Below, in pieces: positions 4,084 through 60,356 of a DNA stretch of 64,000 nucleotides. Origin of the DNA: an uncultured Alphaproteobacteria bacterium (lineage in GTDB: Bacteria > Pseudomonadota > Alphaproteobacteria > Rhizobiales > Xanthobacteraceae); contig CAWHSM010000004.1 of assembly GCA_963832045.1 (NCBI GenBank), forward strand, positions 244,896-308,895, written 5' to 3'. The notes under the pieces are model-generated. The model was not told the DNA's origin. It saw only the letters and a list, made by a program, of their open reading frames with translations, and did no database searches. Numbering within the stretch: the first letter of the stretch is position 1; every line of letters begins with the position of its first letter. Position numbers and translations under genes: made by a program.

Positions 4084-4956
4084 ATGTTCAGTGAAAAGCT
4101 GCTCGCAGGCCGGCGAATTCTAGTCACGGGAGGCGGCACCGGGCTCGGCAAATCGATGGCTGGGCGCTTTCTCGAGCTGGGCGCGGAGGTCCACATTTGC
4201 GGACGCCGCAAGAGCGTCTGCGACGAGACCGCGACCGAATTGATGGACCTTCATGGCGGCCGCGTCACCAGCCACGGCGTCGATATCCGCAACGCTCTTG
4301 CGGTCGACGAGATGATCGAAGCGATCTTCAAGGACAGCCCGCTCACCGACCTCGTCAACAACGCAGCCGGGAATTTCATCTCGCGCACCGAAGATCTTTC
4401 GTCGCGCGGCTTCGATGCGGTGGCCAACATCGTCATGCACGGCACCTTCTATGTCACGCATGCCGTCGGCCGCCGCTGGATCGCCAACAAGCTCCGCGGC
4501 AACGTGGTTTCGATTACCGTCACCTGGGTCCGTAACGGCAGTCCGTATGTGGTGCCGTCGGCGATGAGCAAGTCGGCGGTCCATGCCATGACGATGTCGC
4601 TGGCGGCCGAATGGGGCCGCTACGGCATCCGGCTGAATACGATCGCGCCAGGCGAGATTCCGACCGAGGGCATGAGCAAAAGGATCAAGCCGGGCGACGA
4701 GGCCGGCGCGCGTACCCGGGCCGCAAACCCCATGGGCCGGGTCGGGACGATGGAGGAGCTGCAAAACCTGGCAGTGTTCCTGATTTCCGGCGGCTGCGAC
4801 TGGATCAACGGCGAGACCATCGCAATGGACGGCGGCCAGGCGCTCGCCATGGGCGGCAACTTCTATCAGCTGCGCGACTGGACCGACGCCGATTGGCAAA
4901 AAGCCCGCGAACAGATCAAGGCGCAAAATGAAAAAGACCGTGGGGCCAGGGGATAA
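4084..4956 (+). CDS. SDR-family oxidoreductase (2,4-dienoyl-CoA-reductase-like)
   Basis: N-terminal Rossmann motif VTGGGTGLGKSM; NNAAGNF; 290 aa. Confidence 0.85.
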   Translation: MFSEKLLAGRRILVTGGGTGLGKSMAGRFLELGAEVHICGRRKSVCDETATELMDLHGGRVTSHGVDIRNALAVDEMIEAIFKDSPLTDLVNNAAGNFISRTEDLSSRGFDAVANIVMHGTFYVTHAVGRRWIANKLRGNVVSITVTWVRNGSPYVVPSAMSKSAVHAMTMSLAAEWGRYGIRLNTIAPGEIPTEGMSKRIKPGDEAGARTRAANPMGRVGTMEELQNLAVFLISGGCDWINGETIAMDGGQALAMGGNFYQLRDWTDADWQKAREQIKAQNEKDRGARG

Positions 4957-6000: not shown

Positions 6001-7197
6001 CTATCCTTTTTCGCCCTGCCCTGCCGATACGGTCACCGGCCGTCCCTTGGTCGAGACGACGCGGACTTTATCGCCCTCCGAGATGCCGTCGGGTGGGGAG
6101 TTGACGATGCGGTCTTCCAGCGAAATGCCGCCGGCAAGCTCGATATCTCGCCCGAGATCGCGGGCAATCGTCACGGTCTTGAACCGGATACGATCGTCGG
6201 CGGTCAACGTCGCAAGGCGCAGGCCATTCTGGTCGAAAATAAGCGCGCTGGCAGGAACGTGCAGCGGGACATTGTCGCCGCGTTGCAGGATCAAGCGGAC
6301 ATTGGCAAAGCCGCCGGGCATCAATTCTCCGACCGAGTTTTCAAGCGCAAGCTGCATCTGGGTCGTGCCGGAAGTCACGTCGACCGACTGTGCGGAGGCT
6401 TCCACGGTCGCATCAAAAGCCCGGGTCGGATATTCCGGCACCACAATCGCCGCCTTGGCGCCGATCTTCACCGACGGCACATAATTCTGCGGAACGTTGA
6501 CATAGACGCGCAGCTTCTTGATGTCCGAGATCACGAACATCGGCGGGCCGCTGCCGCCGCCTGCATTGATCAGCGCGCCGACGTCAGTCGTACGCGCGGT
6601 GACGATGCCGTCGAACGGCACGGTGATCTTCTTGTAATTGGCCAACGCCTCAAGACGCTCAACGTTGGCCTGGCTGGAGTTGACCGCGGCGTTCTTGTTG
6701 GAGAGGTCGGCGGTGCGCTCGTCGATTTCCTGCATCGAGACGAAATTCGACGCGATCAGCGTCTTGCGGCGCGCGAGCGTCACTTCCGAAAGCTTGGCGC
6801 TCGCCTGCTGGTTGGTGAGATCGGCGCGCGCTTGCAGCAATTGCTGATCGAGGTCGGGCGCTTCGATCTCGGCGATCACTTCGCCGGCCTTGACCCGTGC
6901 GCCGATATCAACGCTCCAGCTTTTCAGGTAGCCGTTGACGCGGGCGAAGATCGGCGCGCGGTAATAAGCTTCAAGCCGGCCCGGAAGATCGATCGTGGCT
7001 GTTAACTGCCCCGGATCGGGATAGATCACCGCGACCGACGGAATGGCCTGGTCGTCGGTCCATTCCCGCAGCTTGGTGCTGGAATCTTCCCGCGCACGGA
7101 TACCGCTGACTACCAACGTCAAGGCAGCAACCAGGGCAACTGAGCCGAAAACGCCCAGTTTCCGGCGAGAAGTCGGCTTGCGAGCTTCAGTGGGCAT
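6001..7197 (-). CDS. Efflux RND transporter periplasmic adaptor (membrane fusion protein)
   Basis: HlyD/AcrA-like layout: a membrane anchor, then coiled-coil and lipoyl/beta-barrel segments. The ATG at 7197 (MPTEARKPT..) is preferred and overlaps the upstream RND gene by 11 nt. Confidence 0.85.
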   Translation of the reverse strand: MPTEARKPTSRRKLGVFGSVALVAALTLVVSGIRAREDSSTKLREWTDDQAIPSVAVIYPDPGQLTATIDLPGRLEAYYRAPIFARVNGYLKSWSVDIGARVKAGEVIAEIEAPDLDQQLLQARADLTNQQASAKLSEVTLARRKTLIASNFVSMQEIDERTADLSNKNAAVNSSQANVERLEALANYKKITVPFDGIVTARTTDVGALINAGGGSGPPMFVISDIKKLRVYVNVPQNYVPSVKIGAKAAIVVPEYPTRAFDATVEASAQSVDVTSGTTQMQLALENSVGELMPGGFANVRLILQRGDNVPLHVPASALIFDQNGLRLATLTADDRIRFKTVTIARDLGRDIELAGGISLEDRIVNSPPDGISEGDKVRVVSTKGRPVTVSAGQGEKG

Positions 7198-33158: not shown

Positions 33159-34226
33159 TCAACGCGGCGTCGGTGCTTCCGGCGGCGGAACGCGCAACAT
33201 GCCCCGCACGCCCGCGGCCGAGCCCAGCAGGATGCCGGCTGCTGCGACGAAGGAAGAGAGCGCGAGCGTCGAAATCCCGGTCAAGCCCTGCCCGATCGAG
33301 CAACCGAGCGCCATCGCGCCGCCAGATCCCATCAGCGCTGCGCCGATGATCGAACGCAGCATCTGGCGCGGTGACGTGTACCCTTCGAGGTGAAAGCGGC
33401 GGGTGACGAGCGCCGTCAAAAGACTGCCGGCGAAAACGCCGGCAACCATGACGATACCGAAATTGAGCGTGAGCCCGGTCGAAAGCATCACGTATTGAAC
33501 CGTATCGGCGATCGGCGCGATGAAGGTGAGCGAGGTGACGGCGGCCGGATTGAAATCATCCGCGCCAAGATAACCAGTCGCAAACCAGCCCGCCGTGACC
33601 AGAAGGCCGACCGACAAACCCGCGGCGATCTGACCTCCGGCGCGGCGGAATGGCGCATGCGAGAAGGCAAAGACGATCAGGACCGCTGAGATCACTGTGG
33701 CCACGGTCATCCGCGCGAAAATTTCGCCGCCGCCCAACGCCGGCAGCAGTTCAGGCAGAGAAAGCCGAGCCGGCTTGATCAGCGACGACTGCAACAGCGC
33801 AACGCGAGCGGGAGCGATCAATCCGCGTAACGTCATCTGCGCCGTGATCCCAAGCACGACCACCACGACCAACGATCGCAGATTGCCGCGGCCGAGCAGC
33901 ACCAGCGCACGCGAGCCGCAGCCGTTCGCAAGCACCATGCCGTAACCGAACAACAGGCCACCGGCAAACATCAGCGGCACCGAAAACGACGCCTGAAGAT
34001 AAACTGATTTGCCAAGATCGATCGCGCCATACCCCGCGAGACACTGCGTTGCTGCAACCGCCACGGCGAGCGCAAGCGCAAAGGTCCGGATCAGCCGGCT
34101 GTCACCTTCCGCCCACCAGCCGCGCAGGCTGCTCAACAGGCAGAATCCGCTCAAAAGCCCGACGGCGCCATAGGCGAGCCCGATCGACAGACCGGCGCCG
34201 AGAACGATGTTGAAGTCTGGCGGCAC
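33159..34226 (-). CDS. YeeE/YedE-family membrane protein (sulfur-compound transport family)
   Basis: 355 aa, polytopic. Duplicated ..GFCL../..GCSIGQG.. Cys motifs typical of YeeE/YedE. Confidence 0.82.
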   Translation of the reverse strand: MPPDFNIVLGAGLSIGLAYGAVGLLSGFCLLSSLRGWWAEGDSRLIRTFALALAVAVAATQCLAGYGAIDLGKSVYLQASFSVPLMFAGGLLFGYGMVLANGCGSRALVLLGRGNLRSLVVVVVLGITAQMTLRGLIAPARVALLQSSLIKPARLSLPELLPALGGGEIFARMTVATVISAVLIVFAFSHAPFRRAGGQIAAGLSVGLLVTAGWFATGYLGADDFNPAAVTSLTFIAPIADTVQYVMLSTGLTLNFGIVMVAGVFAGSLLTALVTRRFHLEGYTSPRQMLRSIIGAALMGSGGAMALGCSIGQGLTGISTLALSSFVAAAGILLGSAAGVRGMLRVPPPEAPTPR

Positions 34227-34235
34227 CGTCGCTCC

Positions 34236-35255
34236 TTATGGCCGAAAGATGATGCGATCGCGTGAAGAACCGGCGACCGCGAGAAAAGCGGCCTTGGCTT
34301 CCTCCAGCGGATAGATTGCATTTTGCTTGATCGGATACGGCTTGAGGTGTCCGCTGAGGAAACCGGGACAAAGTTCGCGGAGTACGGCGCCGGTCGCGAT
34401 CGACGACAGGCCAAGCGAGTCGATGCCGACATAGGTGTGCTGGCCGCGATAGAATTCCAGAATGTTGAACTGCACGATACGATCGATAGCGGCGATCAGG
34501 ATCTGGCGTCCGCGCAACGCCAGCGATTTGTGCGCCGCCTGAAAATAGGGATCGCCGACGGTGTTGAAAACGATGTTGGCCCCCTTCCCGTCCGTCAACT
34601 CGCGAACGCGAGCGGCCACATCGGTTGATGAAGAATTGATGATTTCAACGGGACCATTGGTATGCCCGGCATAGGGCTCCTGTTTGCGCACCACGCCGAC
34701 CACTTGCGCTCCGCGCCAGCTCGCGATCTGCACCGCGGCCTGGCCGACCTTGCCATTGACGCCGAACACCAGCACCGTCTCGTGCTTTTCCGGCAGGCCC
34801 GCGCGGCGAAAGCCTTCGATTGCCGTCACGAACGGCACACCGATGCCGGCCGCTTCCTCCCATGAAAGATTCTCCGGCTTTTCCACGACCGCATCCGCTT
34901 CGACCGCCAGATGCGTGGCATGGGTGCCATCGCGGCGAATTCCAAGATCGCCGGACGAGCCGAACACCTCACGGCCGATCATGCCGACCGGGCCATCGAT
35001 CACGACGCCGGCATAGTCGCGGCCCGAAGTGCGCGGGAATACCGCATAAGGCATCAGGCCGGTTGCGGCCTTGATATCGGAAGGATTGACCGCCGCAGCC
35101 CTGATCTCGATCAGCACCTGATTGTCGCTGCGGGACAGTGGCAGGCGCTCGACAGCCGGCGACACCGCAGCAGGCGTTTCGGCCTTGACGTTCAGCCGAA
35201 CACAGCGCGCCTCGACGGAAGCCGATTGGGGGATTGTTTTATTCTCCGACAGCAT
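34236..35255 (-). CDS. Zinc-type alcohol dehydrogenase / quinone oxidoreductase (MDR family)
   Basis: ..IRAAAVNPSDIK.. and the nucleotide-binding VLVFGVNGKVGQAAVQIA motif; 339 aa. Confidence 0.85.
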   Translation of the reverse strand: MLSENKTIPQSASVEARCVRLNVKAETPAAVSPAVERLPLSRSDNQVLIEIRAAAVNPSDIKAATGLMPYAVFPRTSGRDYAGVVIDGPVGMIGREVFGSSGDLGIRRDGTHATHLAVEADAVVEKPENLSWEEAAGIGVPFVTAIEGFRRAGLPEKHETVLVFGVNGKVGQAAVQIASWRGAQVVGVVRKQEPYAGHTNGPVEIINSSSTDVAARVRELTDGKGANIVFNTVGDPYFQAAHKSLALRGRQILIAAIDRIVQFNILEFYRGQHTYVGIDSLGLSSIATGAVLRELCPGFLSGHLKPYPIKQNAIYPLEEAKAAFLAVAGSSRDRIIFRP

Positions 35256-35330: not shown

Positions 35331-35817
35331 CTAGTGTCCCGATTCCGAAGTTCGTACCCTCTAGCGGCCCCATTTTTACGAACTTCGGAATCGAAAGGAC
35401 ACTAGTGTAGCGACTTCTGACGTTCCTTTCAGTGCTGCCGCGAGCTCTCGGAAGGAACGTCAGAGTCAAAGCTACACTAGGATCATATAGTTGCTAGTGT
35501 CCCTTTGGTTCTGACATTCGTAAAAGTGCGCGCTGCGATGGGATACGAATGTCAGAACCGGGACACTAGCCAACTTTTTGATCTAGTGTGGCTTTGGTTC
35601 AGAAGTCCGCATGGCGAACTCGCGGCAATAGGGATGCGGACTTCTGAACCGCCACACTAGTGCCCAGTTCGTGCTCCGTTGCCGCACCCACTTTCCACGA
35701 ACTTCGGAAAGTCAGGGGCACTAGCAAACCTATTGATTCTAGTGCCGCTTTTCTATTTGAAGTTCCTGAATCGAATTCGCCGCTTGTGGTGCAGGAACTT
35801 CAAATAGGCGGCACTAG
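35331..35817. repeat. Array 1 of CTAGTG...CACTAG bulged-hairpin units (six units, unclassified family)
   Basis: Units at 35331-35405, 35402-35480, 35494-35569, 35583-35660, 35657-35724 (one arm truncated) and 35739-35817. Each has a 9-10 bp outer stem, a TTT/AAA bulge, a 16-17 bp inner stem and a 19-23 nt loop. Confidence 0.92.
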
Positions 35818-35913: not shown

Positions 35914-36684
35914 TTACCGGTTCGGATCGGGATAGACGAGGCTGCGCCAGCCGCCGCGGTCGAACGGCTTCCATTGGCCTTCCGCCTGGGCGAGACGATC
36001 GGCCACGGCATAGACGACGGCCGGATGATGGCCCATACCGCAATGGCTGCTCTCGACCTCGATGCTTTCGGAAGTCGCCGAGGTTTTTTCCATGCAGCCC
36101 TGCCAGGCGCAGATGCCGTCGGTGCGGCTGAAAATCGCCGATGTCGGCACCGGCGGAGTTTGCGACAGCGATCCGCCGAAACGGTGATCCTCTTCGTCGG
36201 CGCTGCGACCGCTCGCCATCTCATAGACGCGCCAGGCGTTCGTCGCTCTCGGATGACCGGCGAATGGGCTACCCAGCGTAATCACCGAGCGCACGCGGTC
36301 GGGCATCGTCTTGGCGAGCTGCCGGGCATAGAGGCCGCCGAGGCTCCAGCCGACCAGACTGATCTTGCGCCCATGCGCGTCGCTGAGTTCGTGCACGAGA
36401 TCAACCATCGCCTGCTGCACGCCATGTCGCAGGCCGAGATTGCGGCCCTGCCGCCAGCCGCTCACGGCATAACCCTTGTTTTTCAGAAAGCCGCGCAGCG
36501 GCCGGGTGGAGGTATCGGAAGCGACCAATCCGGGAAGCACCAGCACCGGATGCCCGTCGCCGCGCGGCGCCAGGCTCAACAGCGGCAACGCGCCGAGGAA
36601 CGCACCAAACTCATGAATTGCCCGCCCCTCCAGAAACATCAGGGTTTTGGACGGCGGGCGCAGCGTTTGGGTAGTCGCCGACAT
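35914..36684 (-). CDS. Alpha/beta hydrolase (lipase/esterase-like), paralogue of 48430-49230
   Basis: True start is the ATG at 36684 (MSATTQTLRPPSK..). GWSLGG nucleophile elbow and GDGHPVLVLPG motif. The track ORF has a spurious 153-aa extension. Confidence 0.82.
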   Translation of the reverse strand: MSATTQTLRPPSKTLMFLEGRAIHEFGAFLGALPLLSLAPRGDGHPVLVLPGLVASDTSTRPLRGFLKNKGYAVSGWRQGRNLGLRHGVQQAMVDLVHELSDAHGRKISLVGWSLGGLYARQLAKTMPDRVRSVITLGSPFAGHPRATNAWRVYEMASGRSADEEDHRFGGSLSQTPPVPTSAIFSRTDGICAWQGCMEKTSATSESIEVESSHCGMGHHPAVVYAVADRLAQAEGQWKPFDRGGWRSLVYPDPNR

Positions 36685-36782
36685 TGCATATCCTCGCTCG
36701 AGTGTAGCTATGACGCTGATTCGGCCATTCAAGCCGTTGCGGCCGGACGGAACAATAGCCCGAGAGGTAAAAGGGGCGAAAA

Positions 36783-38093
36783 TCACACCCAGCGCAGCAG
36801 GAATTCGACGGTATAGAAGCCAAGCCCCGCGAGGCCACCGATCAGCGATCCGTTGAAGCGAATGTATTGCAGGTCGCGCCCGATATTGACTTCGATCAGC
36901 GAAATCAGCTGTCCCATGTCCCAGGCCTTGACCTGGTCGGAGATGAAACTGGAGACGCCGCTCTTCTGGTCGGCAATGAAACTCCGCAACACCGTGACGA
37001 ATCCCTGATTGATCTCGGCGCGCAATTCGGAATCGGCGGCGAGTGTTTCGCCGGCTTTCACGAACATTCCGGCCAGATGCTGCTGCAACACCTGGCTCTC
37101 GCCGCTGGCGCTGCGTTCGATGAAATTGCGCGCGTTCGACCACAGGGTTCGTGCCAATTCGCCGAGTTCGGGGCGGGCAAGAAGATCACGCTTGAATCCA
37201 TCGATGCGGTTCGCATAGCTTTTGTCGGTGGCGAGCCGGTCCGCAAAGGACAGCACCATGCGGTCGAACTCGCCGCGAAACGGATGGCGCGGATCGTTGC
37301 GAACCTCTTCGAAAAATGCAGTGACCGACGCCACGATCTTGTTCACCAGGAACTTGTCGGTACGGTAGAGTTTTAGAAGCGTCGGCAGTTCGGCGCGGAC
37401 CTTCTCGCGGATCATCGCCATGGTCTCGGCCTGCACCAGCGTGTCATGCACGGTACGCAGGAGATCATCGAGCAGTCCCTGATGGCGGCCCTCGGCCACG
37501 AAGGTCCGCAAGGTGCCAGCGGCTAGCGGCGCAAGGTCGACCGCCTGCAGCTGTGACGCGATGCGGCGGCTGATGAAGCTCATCAGGCCGGAAGCATCCG
37601 TCGCCGCCACCGCCTCGGGCAGCAGGCGAAGCGTGAAGCGGGCGAGATCACTGCTGCGCTTGCGGTCACGCAGCCAGTCGGCGATGAAGGAGCCGAAATC
37701 GACCTGACGCAGCTTGGCTTCGACGGGGGCGGGTTCGAGAAAATGCACCTCGATGAATTCGCCGAGCTTGTCGGCAATGCGGTGCTGATTGCTCCGGATA
37801 ATCGCGGTATGCGGGATCGGCAAGCCCAGCGGCCGCTTGAACAGCGCCACGACGGCATACCAGTCGGCGAGACCGCCGATCGTCGCGTCCTCGGCAAAGG
37901 CGGCGACGAAGCCGAAAGCGGGATGCGTCGGCAATAGCAGCTTTGCGAGCACGAACAGCGTCAGCGTGCCGGCGAGCACGAGTGTCGCCAGCGCCTTGAC
38001 GCGCCGGAGCTCAGCCGCGCGCGCGGCGTCGCCTGGGGCGAAGGGGAATTCTGATGCGGTCATGGCGGCCATCGCTATTTTGATCGGCTCCAA
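36783..38093 (-). CDS. DUF445-domain membrane protein
   Basis: ..ATIGGLADWYAVVALFKRPLGLPIPHTAIIRSNQHRIADKLGEFI.. is a characteristic DUF445 core, with a C-terminal TM segment. Confidence 0.8.
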   Translation of the reverse strand: MEPIKIAMAAMTASEFPFAPGDAARAAELRRVKALATLVLAGTLTLFVLAKLLLPTHPAFGFVAAFAEDATIGGLADWYAVVALFKRPLGLPIPHTAIIRSNQHRIADKLGEFIEVHFLEPAPVEAKLRQVDFGSFIADWLRDRKRSSDLARFTLRLLPEAVAATDASGLMSFISRRIASQLQAVDLAPLAAGTLRTFVAEGRHQGLLDDLLRTVHDTLVQAETMAMIREKVRAELPTLLKLYRTDKFLVNKIVASVTAFFEEVRNDPRHPFRGEFDRMVLSFADRLATDKSYANRIDGFKRDLLARPELGELARTLWSNARNFIERSASGESQVLQQHLAGMFVKAGETLAADSELRAEINQGFVTVLRSFIADQKSGVSSFISDQVKAWDMGQLISLIEVNIGRDLQYIRFNGSLIGGLAGLGFYTVEFLLRWV

Positions 38094-58015: not shown

Positions 58016-59001
58016 CCGCTACGCCGTTGATCGAGATTCAGAATTTGCGCGTCGTCTTTCACGGCGACAACGGCAGAACCACGCATGCGGTCGACGCCGT
58101 CGATCTTGCCGTCGCCCAGGGCGCCACACTCGGGCTGGTCGGCGAATCCGGCTGCGGCAAGAGCGTCACCTCGCTCGCCGTCATGGGGCTGTTGCCAAAA
58201 CAGTCGACCGAGGTGACGGGATCGATTCGCTTCGATGGCTTCGATCTCCTCAACGTGTCCGACAAGATCCGGCGCGACCTGCGCGGCAACCGGCTCGCGA
58301 TGATCTTCCAGGAGCCGATGACCTCGCTCAATCCGAGCTTCACCATCGGCGACCAGATCATCGAATCCATTCTGCGCCATCGTGGCGGAAGCAAGAGCGC
58401 CGCCCGCAAGCGTGCGATCGATTTGCTGCGGCGGGTGCATATTCCCTCCCCCGAGCGCCGCATCGATGAATACCCGCACAAGCTTTCCGGCGGCATGCGT
58501 CAGCGCGTGATGATCGCGATGGCGCTGGCCTGCGATCCCCGTCTCCTGATCGCCGACGAGCCCACCACCGCGCTCGACGTGACCTTGCAGGCGCAGATCC
58601 TCGACCTGATGCGCGAACTGAAGGCGGAAAGCGGCGCCGCGATCATCCTGATCACCCACGATCTCGGCGTCGTGGCAGAAGTCTGCGACGAGGTCGCGGT
58701 GATGTATGCCGGCGAGGTCGTGGAGCGCGCGGGCGTCGATGAATTGTTCGCAGCGCCGCAACATCCCTACACCGTCGGGCTTCTGGGTTCGATTCCGCGG
58801 CTGGATCGCCGTAGCTCGCATCTTGCGACCATCGAGGGCATGGTTCCCAACATGACCTTACCCCCGAATGGTTGCCGTTTCGCGGCGCGCTGTCCTTTTG
58901 CCGAGGCGGCTTGCACCGCGACAGCTCCGCCACTTGTGGAGGTCAGTCCCAGCCATTGGTCGCGCTGCATCCGCGCGCCGCTGCAGAGGCTGGTGTCGTG
59001 A
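58012..59001 (+). CDS. ABC transporter ATP-binding protein (DppD-like), second system
   Basis: Walker A GESGCGKS, signature [12 protein letters not shown] overlap with DUF1028. Confidence 0.9.
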
Positions 59002-60122
59002 TGGCCGCGCTGCTCGAGGCCAAAAATCTGGTCAAGCACTTCGTCGCCTCGCGCTCGGCGTTTGGCCGGCCGACGGCTTTCGTCAAGGCGGTCGACGACG
59101 TCAGCTTCAGTGTTGATGCCGGCGAGACGCTGGCGCTGGTCGGAGAATCCGGATGCGGCAAATCCACCGTCAGCCGGCTGGTGTTGCGCCTGATCGAGCC
59201 GGATCACGGTGAAATCCGTTTCGAAGGCCGCGACCTGCTGGCGATGGACGCGAACGAATTGCGCGCCTTCCGCCGCGACGCGCAGATCATTTTCCAGGAC
59301 CCTTATGCCTCGCTCAATCCGCGAATGACCGTCGGCCAGATGCTTGCCGAGCCGCTTGTCTTGCACAATCTGGTGCCGCAGGCCCGTCGCCGCGAACGGG
59401 TCGAAGAATTGCTGCGGCTCGTTGGTCTCGAACCGCGCTCGAGTCGCCGCTATGCTCACGAATTCTCCGGCGGACAGCGCCAGCGCATCGCGATTGCGCG
59501 CGCGCTTGCGGTGGAACCAAAGCTGATCATCTGCGACGAACCGGTCTCGGCGCTGGATGTCTCGATCCGCTCGCAAATCCTCAATCTGCTCGGCGATCTG
59601 CAAAGGCGGCTCGGGCTCGCCTACATTTTCGTCTCGCACGATCTTGCGGTGGTCAAACACATCGCCGATCGCGTAGCGGTGATGAATCTCGGCAACATCG
59701 TCGAGACCGCACCCGCCGAGACGCTGTTTACCTCGCCGCGCCACCCCTATAGCCGGGCGCTGCTGTCGGCAATCCCGGTGCCGAAACCGCAGGCCAAACG
59801 CAGCCGCATGGTGCTCGAGGGCGAGATGCCGAGCCCGATTGATCCGCCCCCCGGTTGCCGGTTTCATACCCGTTGCCCCTATACGATCGACCGCTGCCGC
59901 AGCGAGGTGCCGCAACTCAAGCCGAGCACGGCCGGACACCTGACCGCTTGCCACCGCGCCGGTGAACTGCCGCCGGCGGGCGCGATCATCCCCAGCGATG
60001 GCGCCTTCTCGCCTGAACTGGAACGATTGGTCGCAGCGTTCGGCCGTCCTAGTGTCCCGATTCCGAAGTTCGTAGCATCTTGCGGAGCCACGTTTCGAAC
60101 TTCGGAATCGAAAGGACACTAG
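59001..60122 (+). CDS. ABC transporter ATP-binding protein (DppF-like), second system, with a repeat-encoded C-terminal tail
   Basis: ATG at 59001 (overlaps the preceding TGA). Walker [10 protein letters not shown], signature FSGGQRQR. The last 24 codons and the TAG stop lie inside hairpin unit 60049-60122. Confidence 0.88.
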
Positions 60123-60302
60123 CAAAACTACTAATCTAGTGTGGCTTTGGTTCAGAAGTCCGCATGACCAGCCCGCGGCACAAACGATGCGGACTTCTGA
60201 ACCGCCACACTAGAATCATATGGTTGCTAGTGTCCCTTTGGTTCTGACATTCGTAAAAGTGCCCGCCGCGATGGGATACGAATGTCAGAACCGGGACACT
60301 AG
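60049..60302. repeat. Array 2 of CTAGTG...CACTAG bulged-hairpin units (three units)
   Basis: Units at 60049-60122, 60136-60213 and 60227-60302. Their stems are identical to array-1 units 1, 4 and 3 respectively, and the loops differ. Confidence 0.92.
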
Positions 60303-60356
60303 TGGAAGCGAACCGGGGTTCCGGGGTTAATATAGCCGGCGTCACGCCGCGTAACG

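Follow-up and report, generated by a model that had tools for sequence, protein, structure and literature searches.

Twin-hairpin doublets inserted at CTAG, a probable miniature inverted-repeat transposable element family of Alphaproteobacteria

A central binding site for the integration host factor (IHF) is known from the Correia elements and from the BIME-1/RIB elements of E. coli, and the latter, bacterial interspersed mosaic elements (BIMEs) that are also named RIB or RIP, are composed of the repetitive extragenic palindrome (REP) Y, the IHF-binding L motif and REP Z1. Here, an array of hairpins is described that was noticed in a 64,000-nt stretch of DNA from an uncultured alphaproteobacterium of the Xanthobacteraceae (the window, i.e., this whole stretch), where it occupies positions 35331-35817 (locus 1) between an alpha/beta-hydrolase gene and an MDR oxidoreductase gene. 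The recurrent unit of the array is a doublet of ~165 nt with a polarity, in which a P hairpin, a linker of 12-14 nt and a Q hairpin follow each other and the arms that carry the T bulge face the linker. With a probability of roughly 0.62, the tract is built from a non-autonomous MITE (miniature inverted-repeat transposable element) of ~165 bp that inserts at CTAG and is moved by a transposase of the IS630 family.

Gene-less elements of 100-155 bp with terminal inverted repeats (TIRs), TA boundaries, a central IHF site and strong hairpins were described in Neisseria as Correia or NEMIS elements; they lie close to genes, are co-transcribed and have no known partner transposase (PMC2229807, in part supplemented from general background). 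The likeness of the doublet to these elements is architectural only. A Correia element forms one long hairpin through its two TIRs, whereas the doublet possesses a complete bulged hairpin of 75 nt at each end and is further distinguished by its strict CTAG context, its self-nesting and its hosts within the Alphaproteobacteria. RUP from Streptococcus pneumoniae and other MITEs of the IS630 family are also non-autonomous, are found at TA and are tied to an insertion sequence (IS) of the IS630 family by TIR similarity (PMC2229807). However, RUP has a size of 107 bp and simple TIRs that closely match IS630-Spn1, while the doublet has hairpin ends of which only the terminal 12-14 bp are IS-like. 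Like BIME-1/RIB/RIP, the doublet pairs two unlike palindromic units that are inverted relative to each other across a conserved short linker containing an IHF consensus, and both elements occur in intergenic clusters (background in PMC2817692 and PMC3733652, in part general knowledge). In contrast to REPs, which are 20-40 nt long, carry a GTAG or CGTC tag and are associated with RAYT enzymes, the units of the doublet are 68-80 nt long, carry a CTAG tag, show CTAG target behaviour and point to an IS630-type partner; what is shared with REPs is the alternating orientation with a conserved linker motif, while size and tag differ. Of the features by which MITEs are recognised, small size without a transposase gene, TIRs, a defined target and dispersed polymorphic copies were found, but not an autonomous parent with full identity at the ends.

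At locus 1, six hairpins that begin with CTAGTG and end with CACTAG are located at 35331-35405, 35402-35480, 35494-35569, 35583-35660, 35657-35724 and 35739-35817 (units 1 to 6). The preliminary description of this DNA, made from its letters alone, had assigned a common architecture to all six, and both these positions and the architecture were borne out: in every unit, a loop of 19-23 nt tops an inner stem of 16-17 bp, which a T or A bulge of 3-4 nt separates from an outer stem of 9-10 bp. The five intact units of locus 1 have folding free energies of -39 to -49 kcal/mol (z -8.8 to -9.3), and no shuffled sequence was as stable. Unit 5 folds weakly (z -3.2) because part of one arm is missing; a loss of ~10 nt had been proposed, and the comparison with an intact copy in L035 (L numbers denote the collected loci) puts it at ~9 nt. 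The pattern CTAGTG-N50-75-CACTAG has nine matches in the window vs. 0.01 expected, and the three matches outside locus 1 form locus 2 (60049-60302), where the stems are identical to those of units 1, 4 and 3 and the loops differ. CTAG had been called rare, and the window indeed has 29 sites vs. 62 expected, with 17 of the 29 lying inside the two arrays. Shared CTAGs between abutting units (CACTAGTG), related linkers of 13-14 nt in both orientations at locus 1, and a weak common core of the loops, GCSGC, are present as described, and the absence of an adjacent transposase gene was confirmed for the genes flanking the two window arrays. The proposal that structure rather than sequence is conserved holds in its first part, as the structure is kept; the sequence is kept as well, in a common core TTCNGAAGTTCG and in discrete subfamilies with near-identical stems across genomes. 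The loop centre retains the GCSGC core (GATATC in some subfamilies), e.g., at 35523-35543 and 35613-35633 of the window, and the remaining loop diverges by 30-50% within a subfamily.

While a small element inserting at CTAG was retained from the preliminary description, the single hairpin was replaced as its repeating and mobile unit by the doublet of hairpin, linker and hairpin. After robust orientation calling, 44 of 50 neighbouring hairpin pairs have the arrangement (-)[12-14 nt](+), and ~60 of the 71 apparent singletons have a decayed partner hairpin alongside, which had first been missed because its outer CTAG is mutated. A doublet profile (nhmmer) built from 44 doublets spans 167 positions and detects 157 copies that do not overlap, of which 118 are covered from end to end, and its scores are asymmetric between the strands, so that the doublet has a defined polarity. 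The P hairpin has the outer stem GTGTCCC and the Q hairpin GTGTGGC or GTGCGGC, and the P and Q outer arms, inverted with respect to each other, are ~75% alike (GTGTCCCGATTCCGAAGTTCG vs. GTGTGGCGGTTCAGAAGTYCG), which makes them TIRs. The interior of the ~165 bp consists of hairpin arms, loops and the 13-nt linker and contains no transposase gene. When the window was compared with the collected loci by BLAST, matches extended only over the ~165 nt of two hairpins and linker, with at most 94% identity, and the flanks were unmatched.

Locus 1 consists of an old doublet (units 1 and 4) and of two later doublets at its inner CTAG (units 2 and 3) and at its outer CTAG (units 5 and 6). The comparison of filled and empty sites proposed in the preliminary description was carried out at both window loci and supports insertion at CTAG, including nested insertion. 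The closest fetched relative of locus 1, L231, encodes a hydrolase that is 93% identical and keeps the synteny of DUF445, hydrolase and MDR oxidoreductase, and its orthologous spacer holds exactly one doublet in the order unit 4, linker, unit 1. Two further doublets are present in the window: units 5 and 6 abut the outer CTAG beside unit 4, and units 2 and 3 occupy the inner CTAG that lay between unit 1 and the resident linker. When 35661-35817 and 35406-35569 are excised in silico, one CTAG going with each, the spacer of the window becomes colinear with that of L231 (370 of 444 positions identical, no large gap). Each empty site in L231 is a single CTAG, and the site of the outer doublet reads GCGTTG-CTAG-TGTGGC.

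The resident doublet D-a is encoded on the + strand and encompasses the P hairpin (unit 1, 35331-35405; -39.3 kcal/mol, z -9.2), which has an ortholog in L231 and is of the same type as the hairpin at 60049-60122, an AT-rich, IHF-site-like linker at 35570-35582 (CCAACTTTTTGAT) and the Q hairpin (unit 4, 35583-35660; -49.1 kcal/mol, z -9.1), also with an ortholog in L231, the stems of which recur identically at 60136-60213 and in at least ten other genomes. Unit 1 is now split from its own linker by the inserted doublet D-b (35406-35569), which lies in reverse polarity on the - strand (126.7 bits on - vs. 94.1 bits on +, nhmmer) and is absent from the spacer of L231. D-b comprises the Q-type unit 2 (35402-35480), a linker at 35481-35493 (GATCATATAGTTG) and the P-type unit 3 (35494-35569), 164 nt when counted with one duplicated CTAG, and the same doublet type is found in L058, L017, L056 and L012. 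The second inserted doublet, D-c (35661-35817, + strand; 98.1 bits on +, nhmmer), is likewise absent from L231 and is composed of the degenerate P-type unit 5 (35657-35724, ~9 nt deleted), a linker at 35725-35738 and the Q-type unit 6 (35739-35817), together 157 nt counted with one duplicated CTAG; intact copies of the same type are present in L035, L086, L047 and L108.

For locus 2, a metagenome scan with the ABC ATPase encoded next to the array resulted in 80 syntenic loci of ATPase and substrate-binding protein (SBP), of which ~75 have an empty spacer. In the closest relative, L119, the empty site reads GGCCGC-ACCGA-TGGAAGCG, and L120 is the same at the junction, while the filled site in the window reads GGCCGT-C-CTAG[array]CTAG-TGGAAGCG and is length-exact compared to L119 once the array and one CTAG are removed. 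The array contains a complete doublet of the D-a type on the + strand (60049-60213; 143.4 bits end to end, nhmmer; 94% identical to L042 over 165 nt) with P hairpin (60049-60122), linker (60123-60135) and Q hairpin (60136-60213). It is followed on the - strand by a half doublet (60214-60302), consisting of a linker (60214-60226, AATCATATGGTTG) and a P-type hairpin of the unit-3 type (60227-60302), whose own Q hairpin was probably lost by deletion between adjacent near-identical arms. The displaced 3' end of the ABC ATPase gene (TGGAAGCGAACCGGGGTTCCGGGGTTAA; 60303-60330, + strand) can be aligned with the 3' ends that are still in frame in L119 and L120 (..TGGAAGCGAACCGAGGTTTCGGGGTTAA). In the ABC ATPase gene itself (58872-60330), the last 10 codons were displaced by the insertion, the old 3' end surviving at 60303-60330, and the open reading frame (ORF) continues for 24 codons encoded by the element, across the P hairpin to the TAG of its inner CTAG, which serves as stop codon.

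A separate doublet insertion was found in L135 (3785-3950) and L170 (1717-1882) inside the signal-peptide coding region of the SBP after ..MKILRLAA; it is length-exact as well, 162 nt (54 codons) being gained on balance, and in L135 the reading frame remains uninterrupted across the element. A new signal peptide may be provided by an internal start. In three independent cases, there is one CTAG per empty site and two around each insert. Distant orthologous pairs among the genome loci also show presence and absence of doublets, at a divergence too great to resolve the target. Analysis of the outer tetramers of 105 doublets revealed CTAG in 79% and 72%, the variants being one-sided single changes, and no consensus beyond CTAG. 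Of the ends that face a converging coding-like gene, 29/88 use the TAG of their terminal CTAG as stop codon of that gene, when ORFs are filtered on third-position GC content (raw ORF lengths were uninformative); this is expected for a CTAG-seeking element, as stop codons are among the few places where CTAG survives.

The covariation of the stems, claimed in the preliminary description from the six units, was analysed for 189 distinct hairpins. The 23 consensus pairs are canonical in 97% compared to 27-42% in slid controls, and 19 of the 23 occur with two or more Watson-Crick types. Approximately 95% of the stem pairs are Watson-Crick pairs and ~2% are G.T, the latter equally on both strands. 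As the covariation is almost purely of Watson-Crick type and shows no strand or orientation bias, it identifies the stems as DNA palindromes and not as RNA. The orthologous copy in L231 carries uncompensated stem changes. The two arms probably stay complementary since both copy the same end sequence, which would be the one recognised by the transposase; the loops, apart from the GCSGC or GATATC core, would vary because mobility does not depend on them, and would thus be free to drift.

IS630 was reported to prefer the TA of CTAG (title of Tenzen and Ohtsubo, cited in PMC2170065), and for ISRj1 of Bradyrhizobium CTAG target duplicates were described (PMC8692435). Five IS630-family ISs of the same clade are bounded by C-TA-G..C-TA-G, and in one IS630-family IS from the Bradyrhizobium/Methylocystis-plasmid set, TTAG flanks one side and CTAG the other, the pattern that a duplication of TA alone would leave. 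In L011 (3751-5169), a P hairpin is separated from a Q hairpin by 1265 nt, within which lies an IS630-family IS of 1250 bp with ORFs matching HTH_32/HTH_23 and DDE_3. This IS sits in the inner CTAG of a doublet that is found intact in the same metagenome-assembled genome (MAG; L015, 1600-1765), so that the elements act as landing pads for ISs, as do the Bru-RS repeats for IS711 in Brucella. Relatives of the IS in L011 are found in Bradyrhizobium sp. Ash2021 and Methylosinus trichosporium OB3b; they are 1242-1268 bp long, flanked by CTAG and start with GTSGCCCGMTTCA.. When six TIRs of this subgroup were compared with 189 outer arms, 6.7-9.0 of the first 14 nt agreed vs. ~4.5 for shuffled sequences (0-2.4% of the shuffles reach the observed value), whereas eight TIRs of four other IS630-family ISs agreed with the outer arms at or below chance. 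The inner arms, which have a TTT insertion within the stretch, agree with the TIRs of the subgroup at 4.6-5.9 of 14 positions, which is lower than for the outer arms. Judged from these sequence comparisons, the subgroup would be the best candidate for the partner. Plasmids of Bradyrhizobium and Methylocystis yielded four IS630-family ISs (L199, L223, L224 and L226) that were rejected as partners, as they share the boundary pattern but have TIRs unrelated to the element. The IS630-family copy in L199 (40455-41498; Bradyrhizobium sp. CB82 pCB82_1) has internal stops after ~140 residues and encodes either a programmed-frameshift transposase or a pseudogene. Transposases are likewise not encoded by the ORFs that lie between paired doublets in L001 and L058.

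The following course of events is proposed. The element, of the form (C)TA-GTG..P hairpin..CAC-TAG, 13-nt linker, CTA-GTG..Q hairpin..CAC-TA(G), would insert into the TA of CTAG with duplication of TA, and because it starts with G and ends with C, CTAG would be recreated at both ends, in addition to the two internal CTAGs of each copy. In a genome that is depleted of CTAG, elements rich in CTAG are therefore their own best targets, and nested and abutting arrays build up. Movement would take place in trans by a DDE transposase of the IS630/Tc1-mariner type, most likely of the subgroup whose TIRs, starting with GTSGCCCGMTTCA.., resemble the outer arms. The 3-nt TTT insertion in the recognition stretch would disable the inner arms as ends, and the doublet would therefore move as one piece. 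The central linker has the AT-rich consensus CAAnTnTATGATT, the reverse complement of which, AATCATAnAnTTG, resembles an IHF site, and no more than one mismatch separates 46 of 95 linkers from WATCARNNNNTTR, compared to 1.65 of 95 when linkers are shuffled. An IHF-like site at this position could bend the short element and may help the 165 bp to bring their two ends together.

Several observations weigh against this MITE interpretation. An autonomous element with full-length P/Q ends was not found, the likeness to TIRs is limited to the terminal 12-14 bp, and only separate doublets turned up when all fetched DNA (1.3 Mb) was searched for elements of IS size with P/Q-like ends, or with any CTAG together with a TIR, at their boundaries. 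Ordinary MITEs have simple TIRs, and the model leaves the complete 75-nt hairpin ends unexplained. Doublets are ~94% identical between genomes in which their flanks do not align, and the loops diverge far more than the stems, so that selection at the level of the element or horizontal transfer has to be added as an assumption. The closest empty relatives of locus 2 read ACCGA and not CTAG, and therefore the CTAG before insertion is only deduced at this locus. A duplication of TA leaves the same junctions as a duplication of CTAG, or as an element that brings its own 3' CTAG and goes in 3' of a CTAG; thus, the junctions are compatible with a DDE mechanism but do not prove it by themselves. Finally, the IHF site is a consensus match only, and at position 6, where the consensus has R, the most frequent base is T.

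The alternative that survives best, although we consider it improbable, is a REP/BIME-like element moved by an HUH (Y1) transposase of the RAYT or IS200/IS605 type, which includes the suggestion of the preliminary description that hairpins of single-stranded DNA are presented to a nuclease. Here, P and Q would fold in single-stranded DNA, the bulges would be recognised and cleavage would occur at CTAG, with insertion 3' of the target CTAG, the element bringing its own 3' CTAG, and without a true duplication. Bulged imperfect hairpins beside a conserved tetranucleotide, the alternating orientation, the conserved linkers and the IHF-like site are arranged as in REP doublets and in BIME-1/RIB of E. 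coli, n elements are equally expected to come with n+1 CTAGs, and long persistence with stem conservation across genera recalls REPIN populations. However, the hairpins are 75 nt long compared to the 20-40 nt of REPs, their tag is CTAG and not GTAG or CGTC (PMC3733652), and the tyrosine transposases of Bradyrhizobium and R. palustris are discussed with GTAG REPs and not with CTAG doublets (PMC3733652). Moreover, G.T pairs are rare and strand-symmetric, so that no single folding strand is favoured; no Y1 gene was detected in the element-adjacent ORFs scanned, which are a small part of the fetched DNA; and the likeness of the outer arms to the TIRs of the IS630 subgroup has no place in this model. 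In a further reading, the end hairpins would be mechanistic, serving structure-dependent movement in which cruciforms or single-stranded hairpins unite outer and inner CTAGs for an HUH-type or unknown nuclease, or belonging to a host-maintained BIME-like module of hairpin, IHF site and hairpin that several alphaproteobacterial orders share, and the IS630 likeness would be coincidental or secondary; this, too, we regard as unlikely.

Rather more doubtful is that the doublets are architectural DNA domesticated by the host, i.e., that hairpins or cruciforms together with IHF sites serve the nucleoid or supercoiling, as proposed for BIMEs, and that mobility is a relic. The central IHF-like site is conserved and the stems are kept across orders of the Alphaproteobacteria while the loops drift, as would be expected from such a role. 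Yet the presence/absence polymorphism between close relatives, the insertions that truncate or interrupt genes and the decay of individual copies, seen from mutated CTAGs, the arm deletion of unit 5 and the mismatches in L231, resemble selfish turnover more than a function tied to a site.

The second suggestion of the preliminary description, functional structured RNA modules that act as processing, stabilising or regulatory elements in read-through transcripts and spread only secondarily, is very improbable: although the stems of -39 to -51 kcal/mol are highly stable, lie in operon spacers and directly after stop codons and would as long perfect duplexes be substrates of RNase III, as proposed for Correia elements (PMC2229807), the pairs show the Watson-Crick bias and strand symmetry given above, Rfam had no match in the whole window at the gathering score (the E-value mode brought up nothing but generic hairpin models of miRNA precursors, far below threshold), element polarity does not depend on which way the converging gene runs (50 P ends vs. 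38 Q ends), no promoter-like or terminator-like sites were found in the two arrays, and the elements are absent at orthologous sites of close relatives, occur inside coding sequence and have uncompensated stem changes in L231. Three further readings were dropped: CRISPR, as the array has neither spacers nor cas genes; attC sites of an integron, as the hairpins have neither cassettes between them nor an integrase in their neighbourhood; and intrinsic terminators, as the stems are not followed by T tracts.

The preliminary description had asked for more copies beyond the two loci, and the family turned out not to be confined to the window. When one genome of each species was scanned with a degenerate pattern of the arm that bears the bulge, at least 115 stretches matched, and almost all of the matches listed are from Alphaproteobacteria. 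The hosts among these listed matches include Xanthobacteraceae/Bradyrhizobium/Afipia, many Hyphomicrobiales MAGs, Hyphomicrobium, Mesorhizobium, Devosia, Caulobacter and Micropepsaceae. Plasmids of Roseibium/Labrenzia carry full doublets of ~72% identity. A blastn search of plasmids with the window tract gave no match, and with the consensus doublet only the Roseibium/Labrenzia copies and truncated remnants, none of them on Sinorhizobium megaplasmids. Full doublets were also observed on ~10 high-GC viral or prophage contigs (IMG/VR, L200-L222), while none was found in the collection of deposited phage genomes. In L001, two inverted doublets (4506-4670 and 6900-7055) bracket 2.4 kb with an ORF for a PAN-domain protein and an ORF of 485 aa without Pfam match, which may be a composite arrangement or chance.

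The doublet would be a new family of an ordinary kind of bacterial repeat, the MITE-like one, and not a new system or principle; no description of it was found in the searchable literature, Bru-RS and RIME being compared by description. Bru-RS1 and Bru-RS2 of Brucella and RIME1 and RIME2 of Rhizobium/Sinorhizobium are also palindromic intergenic repeats of Hyphomicrobiales with a size of ~100 bp. Insertions of IS711, by which the TA of YTAR is duplicated, are concentrated in Bru-RS (PMC2266754), and RIMEs are mosaics of palindromes (PMC2573895). With 103-109 bp vs. ~165 bp for the doublet, they are set apart by these descriptions and not by sequence. QMITE2 of Coxiella burnetii and the GTAG-14 REPs of Bradyrhizobium are hairpin repeats that occur in Bradyrhizobium/Rhodopseudomonas as well, have a conserved stem and a divergent tip and are targets of ISs (PMC5896051). 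QMITE2 differs from the doublet by a GTAG REP core, variable direct repeats of 7-11 nt, the lack of an IHF site and the insertion of IS1111 (PMC5896051); the GTAG/CGTC REP families and QMITE2 were rejected as the identity of the family, as they are different elements.

As a probable MITE family, the doublets are widespread in soil- and plant-associated Alphaproteobacteria and in marine Roseibium, with a clear insertion rule and a candidate partner IS. They account for long hairpin arrays that could otherwise be mistaken for structured RNAs or CRISPR-like features, and they mark remodelled 3' ends of genes, stop codons and even signal-peptide regions. With the self-regenerating CTAG target, the growth of nested arrays in a CTAG-avoiding genome finds a simple explanation, and the presence or absence of doublets can serve as a marker for strain typing. 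The twin-hairpin ends together with the IHF-like site raise the testable question of how an element of 165 bp joins its ends.

With regard to the genes next to locus 1, an exact-protein look-up of the MDR oxidoreductase gave no record. The ORF of 409 aa listed for the hydrolase (35914-37143) is over-extended; all close homologues have 255-256 aa, and therefore the real gene spans roughly 35914-36684. In L227-L230, where the hydrolase is 90-91% identical, PaaX/PaaA/PaaB lie directly downstream of the hydrolase, at the place that is occupied by the MDR oxidoreductase in the window (33159-35255) and in L231.

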